Below are positions 1-53,672 of a stretch of 53,672 nucleotides of DNA, in pieces. A program made the position numbers and the translations under genes. Every line of letters starts with the position of its first letter. The first letter of the stretch is position 1. This DNA comes from Shigella phage vB_Shi_2KOFFS. The notes under the pieces were generated by a model that did not search any database, was not told where the DNA came from, and was given only the letters and a program-made list of their open reading frames with translations. The DNA lies in sequence record PV615261; one strand, given 5' to 3'.

Positions 1-236
1 TTACCAAGCCCAGCCCGTTCGCAGACAATTGTTAATATCTGCATAACGGCTCTGGGCTATTTTAATAGCCGCAACACTGGAGTCCTTATGGATTTTGATG
101 CACTTGATAACTTAGACTTCGGTGCTGCCGAAGAAGCAATTGAAGAACTTAAGAAGAAGCAGGACGAAGAAGCAATCGTTCCTGGTGCTGGCGATAACGA
201 CTGCTCAAGTGGTGCGTGCGCCATCTAAGGACGTAT

Positions 237-3315: not shown

Positions 3316-5082
3316 ATGATGAACGTTAAGCAATGTGTGGCTAAGATTAAGCACGATGTACCAGACTGTAAATCCACATCTGGCAAGTCTTTACAGGTTT
3401 GGTTGAATGTCGATGAAGCTGGTAATAAGAATTTTTCTGGTTACTGTTTTGCATGTGGCGTTCTAGTACCAAATCCTTACGGAAATAATCCGGAGAACAT
3501 TCCAGAGATTAAAGTCAAAACTCCAGAAGAAATTCAGGAAGAAGTTGATGAAATCACTGCTTGTCCTCCGTTTGATTTAACCCATCGCAGCATTGAGCCA
3601 GAATTTTGGAAAGCTGCTGGTGTTCGACTTCTATATTCAGAGTATGATGGAAAGACTCCAAATGCTCTGGCACATGGCTACACCAAAAATGGTAAACTTG
3701 TTCGTTGGAAGATTAAACTTCTGAACAAGAAAGTTATGTGGTCAGTTGGCGACACTCAGGGTAACGACCCTTACAACTGGATGGCTGCAAAAGCAATTGG
3801 CGGTAAGACACTGTTCATCACAGAAGGTGAAGAAGACTGTATCGCATTGCGTCAAATCCTCAAAACTATGAACCGTGGTGGTGCATATGAAGATTTGGAT
3901 TTTGCTGTAATTAGTTTGAGCGACGGAAGTGATTCCGTACACAAATGTTTGTCACCAGTTGCAGAAGAAATTAAGCAACGTTGGGAGCAGGTTGTTATCG
4001 TATTTGATGATGACGAACCTGGACGTAAAGCTGCAAAAGAAGCGTGCCGATTGTTGCCTGGTGCAATGATTGCAACACTTCCAGCTAACGATGCCAACGA
4101 TTGTTTGAAGCGTGGCTTGCTCAAAGCTACTCAATCTGCTGTTGTGTTCCGTGCTGCTCGTCCTCTGCCTACAGCACTTGTCAACAAAGAACTTCTTATG
4201 GAAGAGCTTGATGACGAGGTTGAACAGGGTGTGGATTATCCTTGGCCCAAATTAACCGACTTAATGTTTGGTCAACGTCGAGCCGAAGTTATTACAATCG
4301 GTGGTGCAGAAGGTGGTGGTAAAACTACACTGTCCCGTCAGATTGTGCATCACAACATTACCAAGCACGATTGGGGAGTGTTTACTGCATACATGGAGGA
4401 AACTCCTACAGAAACACTGCGCCGTATGGCTGGCCTTAATGACAACTTGCCATATTGGGAACCCGCGTTCACTCGTGAAGACCCTCGATATGATGAAGCT
4501 AAGTTCCGTCAAACTGCTGCGAAGATGCTTCGTAACATGGAGATTTGGGACCGCAAGCAAGCTGGAGAAGACCCTTATGAAACCTGGGATGGGTTAAAGA
4601 CGATTCTTCGTCAGATTGGACCAGACATTGATATGTTTGTCCTTGATAACTTAACCTACTTATCGGAAGGGATTTCTGCCTCAGAGAAGAACGACTTCTT
4701 AGGTAAGCTGTATGCAGATATTACTAAGCTGGCAGACCAATATCAGTTCCATGTAAATATCTTGTCGCACCTTAACCCTGTGGCAAAAGGTCAACGACCT
4801 CATGAGGATGGTGGACGTATCAAGAAGTCAGACTTTACTGGCTCACGTGCTGCTGCTAAATATTCTCATGGTATGTTTGGCTTTGAGCGTAATAGCCAGG
4901 CAGTTGACCCAAACTGTTCTATCATTCGTTCCATTAAGGCTCGTAAGAGTGGTAAAACAGAAGGCTTCAAGACGTACTATGACACCGAATCCGGTCGAAT
5001 CATTCAACGTTCTTGGGATGACTCGCTGTTCGAAACCAAAGAGATTGTTCAACTCACTAAGAAGAACGGTCCACACCAATAA
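3316..5082 (+). CDS. bifunctional DNA primase-helicase (TOPRIM plus RecA/DnaB-like ATPase)
   Basis: N-terminal Cys cluster; TOPRIM motifs FITEGEEDCIAL and VVIVFDDDEPGRKAA; Walker A ITIGGAEGGGKTT; 588 aa. Confidence 0.85.
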   Translation: MMNVKQCVAKIKHDVPDCKSTSGKSLQVWLNVDEAGNKNFSGYCFACGVLVPNPYGNNPENIPEIKVKTPEEIQEEVDEITACPPFDLTHRSIEPEFWKAAGVRLLYSEYDGKTPNALAHGYTKNGKLVRWKIKLLNKKVMWSVGDTQGNDPYNWMAAKAIGGKTLFITEGEEDCIALRQILKTMNRGGAYEDLDFAVISLSDGSDSVHKCLSPVAEEIKQRWEQVVIVFDDDEPGRKAAKEACRLLPGAMIATLPANDANDCLKRGLLKATQSAVVFRAARPLPTALVNKELLMEELDDEVEQGVDYPWPKLTDLMFGQRRAEVITIGGAEGGGKTTLSRQIVHHNITKHDWGVFTAYMEETPTETLRRMAGLNDNLPYWEPAFTREDPRYDEAKFRQTAAKMLRNMEIWDRKQAGEDPYETWDGLKTILRQIGPDIDMFVLDNLTYLSEGISASEKNDFLGKLYADITKLADQYQFHVNILSHLNPVAKGQRPHEDGGRIKKSDFTGSRAAAKYSHGMFGFERNSQAVDPNCSIIRSIKARKSGKTEGFKTYYDTESGRIIQRSWDDSLFETKEIVQLTKKNGPHQ

Positions 5083-8594: not shown

Positions 8595-9656
8595 ATGGCT
8601 CCTTCGGGAGCCTTTAATTTGGAGCTTACCAAAGTGAGTAAGAAACGAGTTTTGTTGCTGGTTGACGGCGACATGGTTGCATTCAGTCACTGTGCTGCTG
8701 AGGAATACGGCAAAGATTCAGAAGATATTAACTTTGCTAAGATTCAAATGTCAATGGATTCCAAGATGGAATTCCTTGCGAAACGCGTGGGAGCTACAGA
8801 AGTAGTCACCTGCATTTCACCATCCAAAACATTCCGTAATGTTCTTGCCGAGAATTACAAAGGCAATCGTGATGACGTGTGGCGACCAGAAAACTTAAAG
8901 AATGCGAAAGCACATCTTATGGTTGCCTGGAATGGTGTATGGATGAAGGGTCTGGAAGCAGATGACCTTCTTGCTGTATTCGCACGTCATGAATACGAAA
9001 TGACAATGGGCAAACGTAATGAGATTAAGAGCCTCAAGCGCATTGGTCCTTGCACATATGATGAAGTCTGGATTGCGTCGCTGGACAAAGACTTGCGACA
9101 AATCGGGCAGAATGGTGGTGCTGGTCCGGTAATTAAACATTACCAATGGGAACGAGAAACCCAGGGTATTGGTGAGAAGGTTGTAACTCCGCAGGATTAC
9201 GGCGAACTCAAATTAATCATCAAGGACAATGGCAAATCGAAGAAGAAAGAAGTTAAAGGCAATGGCCCTAAATTCTTCTTGCATCAATTGCTTATTGGCG
9301 ACTCAACGGATAACGTTATGGGTTGCGGAGTTCTTGAAGAAAGAATCTACAAAACTGGTGCCAAAGCTGGAGAAACTTATTTCCGTCGTGATGGTATTGG
9401 TGCAGTTGCTTCATTCGAAATGCTGGATGGTACAACCTCCTATGCAGAAGGTTTGAAGAAAGTTATTGGTGCATACATTATGCGCTTCGGAGATGGTTGG
9501 GAACAAGAGCTACTCAAAGTGGGCCGTCTTGTTTACATGCACCATCAAATTGAAAAGGGTAATTGTGTTCGCTTGTGGCATTACAAGAACATTAACGAAT
9601 ACTTTGACCTTAAAGAGAATCGTATCCTCACTCAAGAAGAGTACCTCCAGAAATAA
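8595..9656 (+). CDS. 5'-3' exonuclease / flap endonuclease (FEN, PIN-like)
   Basis: Motifs LLLVDGDMVAF, GLEADDLLAV and SLDKDLRQI matching the Pol I 5'-nuclease / T5 D15 family. Confidence 0.8.
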   Translation: MAPSGAFNLELTKVSKKRVLLLVDGDMVAFSHCAAEEYGKDSEDINFAKIQMSMDSKMEFLAKRVGATEVVTCISPSKTFRNVLAENYKGNRDDVWRPENLKNAKAHLMVAWNGVWMKGLEADDLLAVFARHEYEMTMGKRNEIKSLKRIGPCTYDEVWIASLDKDLRQIGQNGGAGPVIKHYQWERETQGIGEKVVTPQDYGELKLIIKDNGKSKKKEVKGNGPKFFLHQLLIGDSTDNVMGCGVLEERIYKTGAKAGETYFRRDGIGAVASFEMLDGTTSYAEGLKKVIGAYIMRFGDGWEQELLKVGRLVYMHHQIEKGNCVRLWHYKNINEYFDLKENRILTQEEYLQK

Positions 9657-10937: not shown

Positions 10938-11555
10938 GCGATTAGCTGTTATTCTCAATGGACCTCCAGGCTGCGGTAAAGACACCATTGCAAATAAGAT
11001 TGTTGCTGCCGAGGAACCATACTTTCTCGGTAAGCGCAAGTTCATTAAACACCAGTTTAAGGATGCACTGTATGAGCATACTGCCAAACACTTTCAAGTT
11101 GATGTGGACAAGTTTATTCACTACGCTTCGGACCGTGACCTCAAAGACTCTATCTCCCTTGCAGGTCTTGGTGGCAGAACACCTCGTCAGGCTCTTATTC
11201 ACGTTAGCGAAGATGTGTATAAACCTCGCACGGACAAGACTACTTCGGTAAGGTTGAAGCTGCTCGTGTTGAAGAACTCGCGGGGCGTATGGGTGGCATT
11301 ATTAATGTCATTTATCCCGATGGCGGTTTTGGTGATGAAGTCGTTGCCATTGAGTCTGCTTATGATTTTGTCCTCATTGTGCGTTTGCATCGTGATGGTT
11401 TTGATTTCACGGGCGATTCTCGCAGATACATCAACCTCCCAGACACACCTACCCGCGTAACAGTGGACGAACATTTAGTTGATGGTAAAGTGGGTGATTC
11501 TGTATTCAAAGTGTTCAACTGGATTGAACGCGTAACTTATCAAGTAGAGAAATAA
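10930..11555 (+). CDS. P-loop nucleotide kinase (dNMP kinase-like), reading frame broken by a -1 frame change near 11223-11250
   Basis: Walker A LNGPPGCGKDT after TTG 10930 with GAGGA RBS; frame 1 stays protein-like to about 11240, then frame 3 (DYFGKVEAARVEELAGRMGG...) runs to stop 11555; no slippery heptamer. Confidence 0.5.
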
Positions 11556-17235: not shown

Positions 17236-17709
17236 ATGCCAAAGCAAGATTGGTCTATTAATACTGGTGAAGCATATGCAGGTGAACAATATGGCCTGGC
17301 TACCACCAACTCCCAGCGCCTGACCTACGTTGCCGAAGAAGAAATGGCAAACTTTGGTCTGGCTGTTGTTCAAGGCACAGCTTCTAATCAGGTTAAACCT
17401 GGTATTGGGGAAGACGGCACTGTTCTGGGCATTACTATGCGCCAGATTAACATCGAATCTGCTACTCGTCCTGGCGACGGCACTGTTGCAATTAAAGTTG
17501 GCTGGCCTCTGGGTGTTATGCTGTCTGGCCCAATCATGGTCAAACTGAAAACTGCAATCACCGACAAGAACATTGGTGTATCCACTAAAGGCGAATTTGG
17601 TGGTGTTGGTGCTGGGTATACTAAAGCAACCAACCTGACTGCCCTGCGTTATCCGGCTTCCGCTGGCGATGTTGTCCCGGTCATGATTAACGTAGTCCCA
17701 AAGCCGTAA
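17236..17709 (+). CDS. capsid-associated decoration-like protein, 0-frame product (157 aa)
   Basis: Optimised codon usage; beta-rich Gly/Val composition; located between scaffold and major capsid gene. Confidence 0.65.
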   Translation: MPKQDWSINTGEAYAGEQYGLATTNSQRLTYVAEEEMANFGLAVVQGTASNQVKPGIGEDGTVLGITMRQINIESATRPGDGTVAIKVGWPLGVMLSGPIMVKLKTAITDKNIGVSTKGEFGGVGAGYTKATNLTALRYPASAGDVVPVMINVVPKP

Positions 17710-18002
17710 CGCCACCCCCAGCCCCTACAGTATCTGCTGTAGCTGGAGTTGTAACGGTTGATGCGTCTTCTACTGATGCCACTGTAACTGTAGACAAGCT
17801 GTTCAAGTTTGAGAACTCTACAGCAACAGATTATAACTTCGCTGTTACACCTCCTGTGACTGGTGTTTCTGTGGCGGCAAACGGCACTGTGACTGTCTTG
17901 AATGAGACGACCACAGAGACTTCTGCTACAATTAAGGCAACAAACAAAACAACCTCTAGCGTAACTGCGACCAAAGAAATTACCATTACGCCGAAGGCTT
18001 AA
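17236..18002 (+). CDS. -1 frameshift fusion product: decoration-like protein plus C-terminal Ig-like domain
   Basis: After slipping at 17697-17703 the -1 frame reads AVTPPPAPTVSAVAGVVTVDASSTDATVTVDKLFKFENSTATDYNFAVTPPVTGVSVAANGTVTVLNETTTETSATIKATNKTTSSVTATKEITITPKA, ending TAA 18000-18002. Confidence 0.55.
17697..17703 (+). promoter_or_regulatory. -1 programmed ribosomal frameshift slippery heptamer C CCA AAG
   Basis: X XXY YYZ heptamer in the 0 frame, 3 nt before the TAA stop of 17236..17709; the -1 frame is open for 99 codons downstream. Confidence 0.6.
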
Positions 18003-18024
18003 GTTGCAATGGCGCAATTAATGG

Positions 18025-19064
18025 TTGCGCCTCATCAAACAAAACGGATTAATTTACATGCCTAAGATGATTAAACTGGCGGACGGTTCTGAATTTGAAC
18101 TGAACGACGCTATCACCCGTATTCAGGATTCTGGCACTGTTGTCCTGAATGACGACGATGCAGTATTCTTTCAACGCCAGCTTGAGTTCATTGAAGCTCA
18201 AACTTATGACACCCTGTATCCAGAACTGGAAGCGCGTGCTGCTTTCGGTGTGGACACCACTGGTGGCGCTGGCGTAAACACTCTGACCTACCGTTCCTAC
18301 AACCATGTAGGTAAAGCTCAGGTAATTAACGCCCGTGCAACCGACCTGCCGAAGTCCAGCATTTCTGGTAAAGAATACAGCATCCCTGTTAAATCAGTTG
18401 GTACTGCATTCGACTACGATATTGACGAAGTAGCGTCTGCTGCTGTTACTGGCCTCCCGCTGGAAACTCGTAAAGCGAATGCTGCTATTCGTGGTTACGA
18501 GCAGTATGTTAACTCTGCTGCATGGTACGGCGATAAAGCTAACGGCTTTGTTGGCTTCTTCGAAAACCCAGACATTACCAAAGCAACTGTTGCTCAGGGT
18601 GCTGGTGGTTCTACCAAGTGGGCCGAGAAGACCCGACCGAAGTTATTGCCGACCTGACTGCTGCTGTGTCTGCAATGTATGCTTCTACTCTGAAAATTAT
18701 GCGCCCAGATGAAATCTGGATGCCTGTTGAGCATGAGCAGTACATCTTCAACACTGCACGTTCTGAACAGTCTGATAAGACGATTGGTCAGTTCTTCATT
18801 GACAACAACCAGTTCATCAACTCCCGCGATAAAATCAAGGGTCTGAACGCAATCAAAGGTCACGGCGATTCTGGCTCCGATTGCTTCGTTGTTGTTTGCC
18901 GCAATGCAATGGGCAACCGTACTTTCCGTCTGCGTGAGCCTCTGCCACTGACCTGGCAACCGGTACAGCTTCATGGTCTGGTTTATGAAGTTCCTGGCCG
19001 TGGTCGTTTCGCTGGCTTCCAAGCGATGTATCCGGCAGCAATCTCCATCAACTCCGGCATCTGA
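18025..19064 (+). CDS. major capsid protein; reading frame changes (-1) near 18628-18640 in this sequence
   Basis: Strongly optimised codons; frame 1 (18025..18657) and frame 3 (18618..19064) are each protein-like and together about 350 aa; no slippery heptamer at the junction. Confidence 0.65.
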
Positions 19065-19070
19065 TAAATA

Positions 19071-19090
19071 GGGCGGGACTGTTCTCGCCC
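19071..19090 (+). other. stem-loop after capsid gene (possible terminator or RNA processing site)
   Basis: GGGCGGGA-ctgt-TCTCGCCC, 8-bp stem with one G-U pair; no strong U-tract. Confidence 0.35.
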
Positions 19091-19110
19091 ATAACTTAAG
19101 AGAAATAGTA

Positions 19111-19551
19111 ATGCAGATTAAGAACAACGAATCACGCAACCTTCAATTCTTCTTCTATAAGAAGGGAAAGTCTGGCAAATCTGAGCTGGACTTTGTTCAC
19201 ATTCCTGGTGGCGCAACTGTAGAAATCGATGACGAAATCTACAAATCTCTTACGGCATCTCTGACGGAAGTTGAAGAACTGCGCGAAGAAGTGGTTCCGC
19301 TTGATGACGAGAATATCGGTGCTTCTGTTAATACTGGTAAAGAAGCTCTTGTCATTAAAGAGTATTACAGCACTGGCAAAACTCGCAAAGTCAACCTGGT
19401 TAAAGAAGCAATCAAAGCTGGTTCTCTTACCATTGTTGAACGTGTGAAAGTTGGTATGCCTGACATTGATGCTATTCTGACTAAGAATGGTATTGATATC
19501 AAAGGTATGCCGGAAGACGTTAAACTGGCACTCTACGATAAGTTGGCGTAA
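19111..19551 (+). CDS. hypothetical virion/head-completion protein
   Basis: 146-aa ORF in structural block; ATG after AGAGAAATAG. Confidence 0.5.
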   Translation: MQIKNNESRNLQFFFYKKGKSGKSELDFVHIPGGATVEIDDEIYKSLTASLTEVEELREEVVPLDDENIGASVNTGKEALVIKEYYSTGKTRKVNLVKEAIKAGSLTIVERVKVGMPDIDAILTKNGIDIKGMPEDVKLALYDKLA

Positions 19552-51352: not shown

Positions 51353-51639
51353 ACTTACAAGACAAATCCAAAGAAGAGTTGATTGAGATTATCCAGAAGG
51401 AGCACGAACTCGCTGGCATCACAATCAACTATGAACTCCGGGCAATGCAAGCTGTTGCTTTGGGTCATGGTCTAATGGCTACACTCATTCATGCCAAGAA
51501 TGTGTTAGGCATTGACAACGAAAAATACCAAATTCTGGAGAAAGCTGCGCAAGAGCGGATTTCGCAGTGCTTGGTGACATTAGTTGATTTGGGAATCGAC
51601 GCAGAAACTGCGAACAAACGTATCCTACAAGGCCACTAA
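51313..51639 (+). CDS. hypothetical protein (about 96-108 aa)
   Basis: Start uncertain (TTG 51313 or TTG 51349 overlapping upstream stop). Confidence 0.4.
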   Translation: MDNKPTSLRSSILNLQDKSKEELIEIIQKEHELAGITINYELRAMQAVALGHGLMATLIHAKNVLGIDNEKYQILEKAAQERISQCLVTLVDLGIDAETANKRILQGH

Positions 51640-51640
51640 A

Positions 51641-52315
51641 ATGTCTTATCATGATGATGACAAAGAGATTGCACTATCAACGTGTAAGCAATGGCTCAAT
51701 GATAATGATGCCGTCTATCTTGCCAAGGAAGATGTTATCATTATGTGGGTCCATTTTAATCCAGAATCGAAGCGCGGTGAGTGGCAACGCTACAAGATGA
51801 AAGAGGCTTGTCGCATAATTAAAGCCACACGCGCTGGCTTCTCTGCTATGAAATACATCAAGCCAGAGATGCTAATGCTTGCTGCACAAGAAGAAGAACG
51901 TGCATATAAGCAAGCTGTTAAATCTCGTTCAACTGTTCCTCCAGAGTTCTTTAATTTGGAGCGCGCTGGACACTTCAACAATTTAGAAATGTTGACACTG
52001 TGCCTGTTGCAAGAATTAGTTGGAAGAGGACAAAACATTGAAGCTGTTTGTCTTGGAGAACTCATGAAAGAGTTGTTCTCGGCAAAGGGCTTTGCTGTGC
52101 CAAATCGAACTTTACGCTGGAAATTGTTGCGAGCAGTCGCACAAGAAGCTGGTGTAGTTGTTCGTGACAGAACAAACCGACTCACTGTAACTGGAGTTGG
52201 GCGTTTTGTAGCAATCCAGATTGAGGGTTATGACGAATCAATCATCACTGAACTCACTGTCGATGAGACAAAGGATTTAGTAAATAAAACACTAGAACGA
52301 TTCAATAGATATTGA
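51641..52315 (+). CDS. hypothetical protein (224 aa)
   Basis: ATG 51641 immediately after upstream stop. Confidence 0.5.
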   Translation: MSYHDDDKEIALSTCKQWLNDNDAVYLAKEDVIIMWVHFNPESKRGEWQRYKMKEACRIIKATRAGFSAMKYIKPEMLMLAAQEEERAYKQAVKSRSTVPPEFFNLERAGHFNNLEMLTLCLLQELVGRGQNIEAVCLGELMKELFSAKGFAVPNRTLRWKLLRAVAQEAGVVVRDRTNRLTVTGVGRFVAIQIEGYDESIITELTVDETKDLVNKTLERFNRY

Positions 52316-52777: not shown

Positions 52778-53672
52778 GTTGCCGATGGCAAACTTGAGAG
52801 ACTAGGCTAAATCGATCTGGCGTGCACTGGAAGTTTTCCGGTGCTGCCTTGAACCCATTCCAGAGTGAGTGGGCTTCAATGAGCATTCTTGTGATTAGAG
52901 TTGGGAGGTAGGCCGATGCCCAAGCTCATGGCCCAGACAAGAGTGTTCATTGAAGTAGTTTTCTGAGTCTTACGACGGGCCTAAACTGCCTGGAGTTATT
53001 GCGACTGTTTTATTCATTTAAAATAAATGCAAATGATTCTGAAATGCGAGTTGCGGCTTAATTAAATTTAAGTCCTCTCCGTGGTCTTCCAATCCCACGT
53101 AACCAAATTTGGCGCATTGTGGCTTCGAGATGTGATTAATAAATCGGAGCATTAATTAATTTGTATTCTGCGATGCAAAGCAGGCTTAAGTCCTCCAGTG
53201 CGCGTGGGGATGTGACAGAGTACAAACTTAATTATGCAGTTGGATATTTCTAGAGGACGGACGAGCACACTGGAATGTCTTCAATTGGTTTAGTGTGAGA
53301 AGCTATGCCAATTTGAAACGTAACTCCTTGAGGAAGTGCTCCTCTGGACTTCCCTCCACACAGGAATCTCAAGCCTGTGGCAGCGACTTCGAAGCTGCAC
53401 TGCGTAACCTAATTCACCCTAAAGTGAGTTGCCCTGAGCATGGAAATAAACTGCTCATAACCGATGGTATCTACAAAGGTAGATTAAATCAGGTTGCCTG
53501 TTGGTACTTGGGTTCAACACCTGCTTGCACTCGCAAAGTAGTGCCTCGTACCTGAGATGAAGTGAGTCGGGACCATCAATCCCACGTTATGTCAAAACAC
53601 AGTAGGCGACTCACAGATTCTACAAGCCTCGCAGTTCGGGAAAACCTGCGTTATCAAAACCCCCCCCCCACC

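Follow-up and report, generated by a model that had tools for sequence, protein, structure and literature searches.

The capsid locus

The stretch of DNA analysed here, referred to as the window, comprises 53,672 nt (Shigella phage vB_Shi_2KOFFS, sequence record PV615261) and is the complete or near-complete genome of a Chaseviridae phage (Cleopatravirinae, Carltongylesvirus-like). Positions 17900-19200 are matched by 52 GenBank phage records, the best matches being Ecp_YSF (99.2%), PO103-1 (97.5%) and ST32 (95.9%), and they contain two overlapping open reading frames on the + strand, 18025..18657 in frame 1 and 18618..19064 in frame 3, which the ORF listing gives just as the initial annotation had described them. 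That annotation had also called both frames protein-like, and codon log-odds scored against the window's own long ORFs agree: the means per codon are +0.56 and +0.49, while the other frames are negative and contain 4-17 stops.

The proposal that these frames encode a major capsid protein is borne out, since both pieces match the Pfam family PF09950 (Major_capside / DUF2184) well above its cut-off of 26.8 bits. The frame-1 piece covers profile positions 1-109 of 251 with 93.3 bits and the frame-3 piece positions 108-251 of 251 with 58.3 bits; the intact Ecp_YSF protein covers positions 1-251 with 165.8 bits. The two pieces are halves of one PF09950 domain. As the sequence is written there is no continuous PF09950 polypeptide, the profile being cut at 108/109 between the frames, and after the repair of one base it is continuous.

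The limits of the gene (Table 1) follow the annotation of its relatives, in which the true start corresponds to the ATG at 18058 (MPKMIKL...) and not to the TTG at 18025. The intact protein has 335 amino acids, so the earlier figure of about 350 is too high. The GTG at 18618 is merely the first start-like codon of the frame-3 ORF, and 18618-18632 (MGRED) is frame-1 coding sequence read out of frame. At the other side of the overlap, the tail RPKLLPT of the frame-1 product stands in place of the family motif PxEV[I/L]ADL.

Table 1. Features of the capsid gene and of the cement-protein gene upstream of it
Feature	Position	Strand	Frame	Remarks
Cement-protein gene	17236..17709		1	PF22758; ends ...GTC CCA AAG CCG TAA
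Start-less 103-codon -1 ORF	17691-18002			No ATG; first start-like codon GTG 17856
Heptamer C_CCA_AAG	17697-17703			Two codons before the cement-protein stop
Major capsid protein, codons 1-192 (Met1..Thr192)	18058..18633	+	1	Matches the 335-aa genes of Ecp_YSF, PO103-1 and ST32
Missing-base site	18632..18635	+		Window ACC|CG, relatives ACC CCG / ACT CCG; from alignments, exact placement ambiguous
Major capsid protein, codons 193-335 (Pro193..Ile335) and stop	18633..19064	+	3	Collinear with the single ORF of the relatives
Out-of-frame tail RPKLLPT and TGA	18634..18657	+	1	Readthrough past the deletion; not real coding sequence

One base is missing at codons 192 and 193

When the window is aligned with Ecp_YSF, PO103-1 and ST32 it reads GAGAAGA-CCCGACCG where the relatives read GAGAAGACCCCGACCG. 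The window is one base short at 18632-18635, which is where the initial annotation had put the change of frame. The Thr192 codon ACC occupies 18631-18633 in frame 1 and the Pro193 codon CCG occupies 18633-18635 in frame 3; base 18633 is common to the two codons, and therefore exactly one base is missing. As written, translation stops after 199 residues and the other 143 codons lie in the -1 frame. Restoring one base, as had been suggested, is correct in that it yields ...KWAEKTPTEVIADL..., the sequence of Ecp_YSF, PO103-1 and ST32. The suggestion that this base is an extra C in the ACCC run stands as to the number of bases; as to its identity, either C or T would fit, since ACC CCG and ACT CCG both occur among the nearest relatives. 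A homopolymer context is therefore likely but not certain: if the ancestor read ACC CCG the loss shortened a run of four C to three, and if it read ACT CCG the lost base was a T outside any homopolymer. The closest of the ENA/Logan contigs (L028, Logan ERR11438411, 99.1% DNA identity over 3.5 kb) reads ACT CCG.

The gene is continuous in relatives and public collections

Of the GenBank relatives, approximately 48 align across the site, and all of these carry one base more than the window. With an 81-nt junction query, every full-coverage GenBank relative aligned over 82 bases, and the 79-nt alignments corresponded to 80 bases; none was 100% identical. In the three records that were inspected (Ecp_YSF, PO103-1 and ST32) the gene is a single 1008-nt CDS annotated as major capsid or major head protein. 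The extra base is also present at 15 IMG/VR loci with 71-99% protein identity, each of which encodes an uninterrupted protein of 335-343 amino acids. Through exact-protein look-up of neighbouring genes we reached six independent ENA/Logan contigs that span the junction (L025 and L028-L032), and all are intact. In five of them (L025, L028-L031) a 335-aa PF09950 gene is called, and L032 begins inside the gene; in L028-L031 and L032 the junction is the sole gap in an alignment of 1.9-3.5 kb. Gene order in the contigs is that of a head module, with portal (PF06381), Pa193_gp24 (PF09979), cement (PF22758), capsid, E217_gp27 and tail terminator genes. Wherever a gene is annotated or called at this site in relatives, it is a single capsid gene of 335-343 amino acids. 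GenBank record PP952070.1, entitled 'Staphylococcus phage Pel53' (host Staphylococcus hyicus), shows 92% DNA identity to E. coli/Yersinia Chaseviridae in the capsid region, and its host label looks doubtful.

A degenerate pattern demanding the deleted form gave no match in viral, metagenome and genome collections, and exact-protein look-up returned no record of the truncated 199-aa product or of the downstream 146-aa protein. In a collection of 5.8 billion proteins, 116 of the 120 best homologue clusters measure 332-349 amino acids, and none of the 120 best matches is a homologue of about 199 or about 148 amino acids. We also considered whether capsid genes might be naturally split in this family and found no such gene among these 120; the four shorter entries (218-315 aa), all on contigs 1.3-4.1 kb long, are probably truncated.

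The relatives differ synonymously on both sides of the junction, with Thr encoded by ACC or ACT and Pro by CCG, CCT or CCA, and the preceding residues are freely replaced. Trp188, Lys191, Pro193, Glu195, Asp199 and Leu200 do not vary among 32 diverse homologues. Synonymous change combined with invariant residues points to selection on one continuous protein and not on a nucleotide signal, and no conserved signal at the nucleotide level was seen across the junction in relatives.

The break lies within a single fold

Sequence alignments with the solved single-chain capsid proteins of the cyanophage Pam3 (8hdt), FCWL1 (9kmg) and T1 (9kzj) run through the junction. For an intact homologue with 96% identity, the AlphaFold model has a mean pLDDT of 75, rising above 87 for residues 150-300. 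A Foldseek search with this model recovered the HK97 fold, with matches to Pam3, FCWL1, T1, XM1, Pa193, E217, HK97 and encapsulins at E values down to 2.5e-18. According to the model, the break falls on the first residue (N-cap) of the helix formed by residues 193-210 (pLDDT about 90), within a single HK97 fold. A 199-residue product would be without this helix and everything downstream of it, and would end in the junk tail RPKLLPT.

Other indels in the record

The whole window was compared with Ecp_YSF, TH53 and PO103-1. Most of the gaps are compensating pairs in divergent regions, and the conserved 27-kb structural block otherwise shows almost no isolated indels relative to the closest relative; the error rate of the record is low, not gross. 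A second record-specific deletion of one base was found at 11229/30, where it frameshifts a conserved gene whose annotation is dNMP kinase / ATP-binding protein. The extra base is there in each of the 52 relatives compared (CTCGC[T/C]ACGG), and the protein match of the window switches there from frame 1 to frame 3. No long run is present at 11230, and Pfam searches with the pieces of this gene gave only sub-threshold P-loop matches. Unique single-base deletions in two conserved genes of one record suggest sequence error more than biology. Other one-base indels that set the record apart from two or three reference genomes are a change from T4 to T3 at 8618 (8618-8621), a change from TT to TTT at 27062 (27062-27064), and indels at 3318 and 53457. 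Positions 3318, 8618 and 27062 are intergenic by annotation, and near 53457 small hypothetical CDSs are annotated in Ecp_YSF; these four may be real or may be errors.

The ends of the window (1-72 and 53655-53672) fall where a tRNA-Arg is annotated in Ecp_YSF (record positions 51606-51676), in place of which the window has an unrelated stretch of about 70 nt. The window terminates in a run of ten C (…AAAACCCCCCCCCCACC), where Ecp_YSF has eight.

Tests for recoding at the break

The initial annotation had pointed out that no X XXY YYZ heptamer accompanies the change of frame. This holds at the break itself (18625-18640); within the overlap zone there is a formal A_AAC_CCA at 18564-18570. Both frames are open only over the 115 nt from 18543 to 18657, and a scan of this whole zone for canonical and relaxed -1 slippery sites gave A_AAC_CCA alone. 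At the break, -1 re-pairing is impossible for both Thr-ACC (to GAC) and Arg-CGA (to CCG). We examined A_AAC_CCA as a possible shift site and judged it coincidental; it encodes the conserved Glu-Asn-Pro of FFENPDI, and a shift at this point, 65 nt upstream of the break, would garble about 23 residues, including the invariant Trp188 and Lys191. Stimulatory structure was sought at the spacing of a programmed -1 frameshift, 5-9 nt downstream of the shift site. The region after the heptamer (18571-18660) folds no better than shuffled sequences (z = +1.29). A modest hairpin that begins at 18639 folds better than shuffles (z = -2.5), and was judged uninformative; it lies 3' of the break with no shift site before it, and relatives whose capsid gene requires no shift have it too.

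Slippage by the polymerase was considered as well. Transcriptional slippage takes a long homopolymer, about 7 or more A/T, and the longest runs in the overlap zone, A4 at 18563 and C3 at 18632, are too short for it. A frameshift-suppressing tRNA encoded by the phage was likewise discarded, as ARAGORN finds no tRNA in the window; a quadruplet-decoding tRNA gives a +1 shift, and a -1 shift is needed here. The two-frame layout is absent from all relatives aligned across the site, and a literature search on Carltongylesvirus capsid frameshifting and on capsid proteomics of phiEcoM-GJ1 found nothing relevant.

A probable frameshift site in the cement-protein gene

The head module does contain a candidate for programmed -1 frameshifting, located 930 nt upstream, where the heptamer C_CCA_AAG near the end of the cement-protein gene is overlapped by a -1 ORF without a usual start (Table 1). 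The counterpart of this ORF in ST32 is annotated in RefSeq as an 'Ig domain containing protein', and Pfam recognised no Ig domain in it. All 18 loci examined, down to 71% capsid identity, have the heptamer in the same place with the -1 ORF overlapping it, and the codon before C_CCA_AAG varies (GTC, GGC, CTC, ATC or TCC) with its final C always retained. RNAalifold found no conserved structure after the heptamer. C_CCA_AAG has been described as highly shift-prone in E. coli, and phage structural proteins are well known to gain Ig-like extensions at the C terminus through -1 frameshifting (PMC5009743). From its sequence context and conservation, C_CCA_AAG at 17697 is probably a genuine programmed -1 frameshift site of the cement-protein gene. 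If so, the predicted fusion of cement protein and extension would have about 250 amino acids with the junction ...NVVPK-AVTPPPAP.... The records of relatives that we inspected have two separate genes or nothing at this position, with no frameshift annotated.

Discussion

Of the two alternatives left by the initial annotation, a homopolymer or assembly error and a recoding event, the former fits all of the tests and the latter is supported by neither a shift site, nor conservation, nor a long run. The lesion is unique to this record and sits within or beside a run of C, and the record holds a second unique deletion that frameshifts a gene, which together support an error. We therefore attribute the capsid split to an indel error in the record, with a probability of roughly 0.85, and infer that it is the record, rather than the phage DNA, that lacks the base. 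One base has been lost from the codons of Thr192 and Pro193, changing AC[C/T] CCG to ACCCG. On this view the loss would have arisen in base calling, consensus building or assembly, at a short run of C, and the phage itself would carry an unbroken gene and make an ordinary capsid protein of one chain. Some of the evidence counts against an error: if the ancestor read ACT CCG, the loss of a T would fit homopolymer-length errors less well, the structural block has almost no other isolated indels, and the deletion at 11230 lies outside a long run.

A deletion that is real in the sequenced DNA would mean a defective genome, either a non-viable variant that accompanied wild-type phage in a mixed lysate or environmental sample, or a mutation that entered the consensus by chance or at low coverage. 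The given sequence does carry the deletion, a second gene is also frameshifted, as might be seen in a decaying genome, and natural one-base deletions likewise favour short runs. However, each virion needs hundreds of copies of the capsid protein and a truncated gene cannot sustain a lytic phage, long ORFs elsewhere are intact with normal synteny, and no independent contig has the lesion; we regard a defective genome as unlikely. Should the phage be viable with a real deletion, it would have to obtain its capsid protein through an unconventional -1 shift at ACC_CGA or from an HK97 fold made of two chains, which we find highly improbable; ACC_CGA has no known slipperiness, and adjoins the rare Arg codon CGA.

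Restoration of the full-length protein by -1 ribosomal frameshifting, or by a polymerase that adds a base, is equally improbable. A shift anywhere within 18543..18657 would give a fused product, the overlap zone holds a formal heptamer and has a better-than-shuffled hairpin downstream of 18639, and corrective or compensatory ('savior indel') frameshifting is a recognised class, which gives low yields and makes use of a long run or some special context (Atkins et al. 2016, PMC5009743). Such very low yields are difficult to reconcile with the most abundant protein of the virion. Moreover, neither codon at the break is able to re-pair in the -1 frame, the formal heptamer represents conserved Glu-Asn-Pro codons with no structure after it and a cost of about 23 residues, the A4 and C3 runs are too short, no relative has the two-frame layout, and the break has nothing comparable to the conserved C_CCA_AAG at 17697. 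If recoding did occur, a capsid protein of about 37 kDa with the junction peptide WAEKTPTEVIADL (...WAEKT-PTEVIADL...) would be expected. It is scarcely conceivable that two polypeptides, one of 199 amino acids and one of about 130-148 restarted at GTG 18618 or ATG 18675, form one HK97-like fold. The GTG has a weak GGTGG upstream and there are in-frame ATGs at 18675, 18699 and 18720, but the cut would interrupt the fold just where a confidently modelled helix begins, and the strand order as we read it from the model suggests that both halves contribute strands to the P-domain. An ATG restart would drop the conserved PTEVIADL helix start, homologues of either size are absent from the 120 best matches, and the solved relatives are all single chains. 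Jointly, recoding and a two-chain capsid are without support and very unlikely.

The capsid split is thus most likely not a real biological feature. The family to which the protein belongs is ordinary and well populated, and the split itself is of little biological import; its importance is for curation, as the genome, annotated as it stands, would seem to have its capsid protein in two fragments and its dNMP kinase gene broken. The record merits a check against the reads, and correction. The locus also illustrates how the two situations may be told apart, since a genuine programmed frameshift has a conserved shift site and a start-less downstream frame, whereas an indel artefact occurs in one record, in the middle of a domain, and with no signal. 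The cement-protein site and the capsid break are alike in having overlapping frames within the head module, but only the former has a shift-prone heptamer near a stop codon, a start-less -1 ORF and conservation.

Capsid genes expressed in two frames by a programmed -1 shift are known from T7 (10A/10B), T3, Lactobacillus phage A2 and Listeria phages A118 and A500 (PMC5009743). In these phages the shift takes place near the 3' end, at a conserved shift-prone site, and adds an optional C-terminal extension to an unshifted product that is itself the functional main capsid protein. The break in the window, in contrast, is in the middle of the fold, has no shift site and is not conserved, and its unshifted product would be useless. 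A likeness is also found in the G-run mutants of herpes simplex thymidine kinase, which have a one-base indel in a run, as the window may, and in which rare recovery of the frame is possible (PMC5009743); that run is of about seven G and gives a trace of product, whereas the window has a run of three C and the protein is needed in bulk. The nearest counterparts are the capsid proteins of Carltongylesvirus / Chaseviridae phages (Ecp_YSF, WMM91801.1; ST32 gp57, YP_009790717.1; PO103-1, UTQ80257.1; and phiEcoM-GJ1), whose genes share 95-99% DNA identity with the window and the same gene order of portal, protease/scaffold, cement protein, Ig-like ORF, capsid and head-tail adaptors. Their capsid gene is an uninterrupted ORF of 1008 nt, compared with which the window is one base short at Thr192/Pro193, and they belong to the same PF09950 family, with a protein identical to that of the window once the one base is restored.
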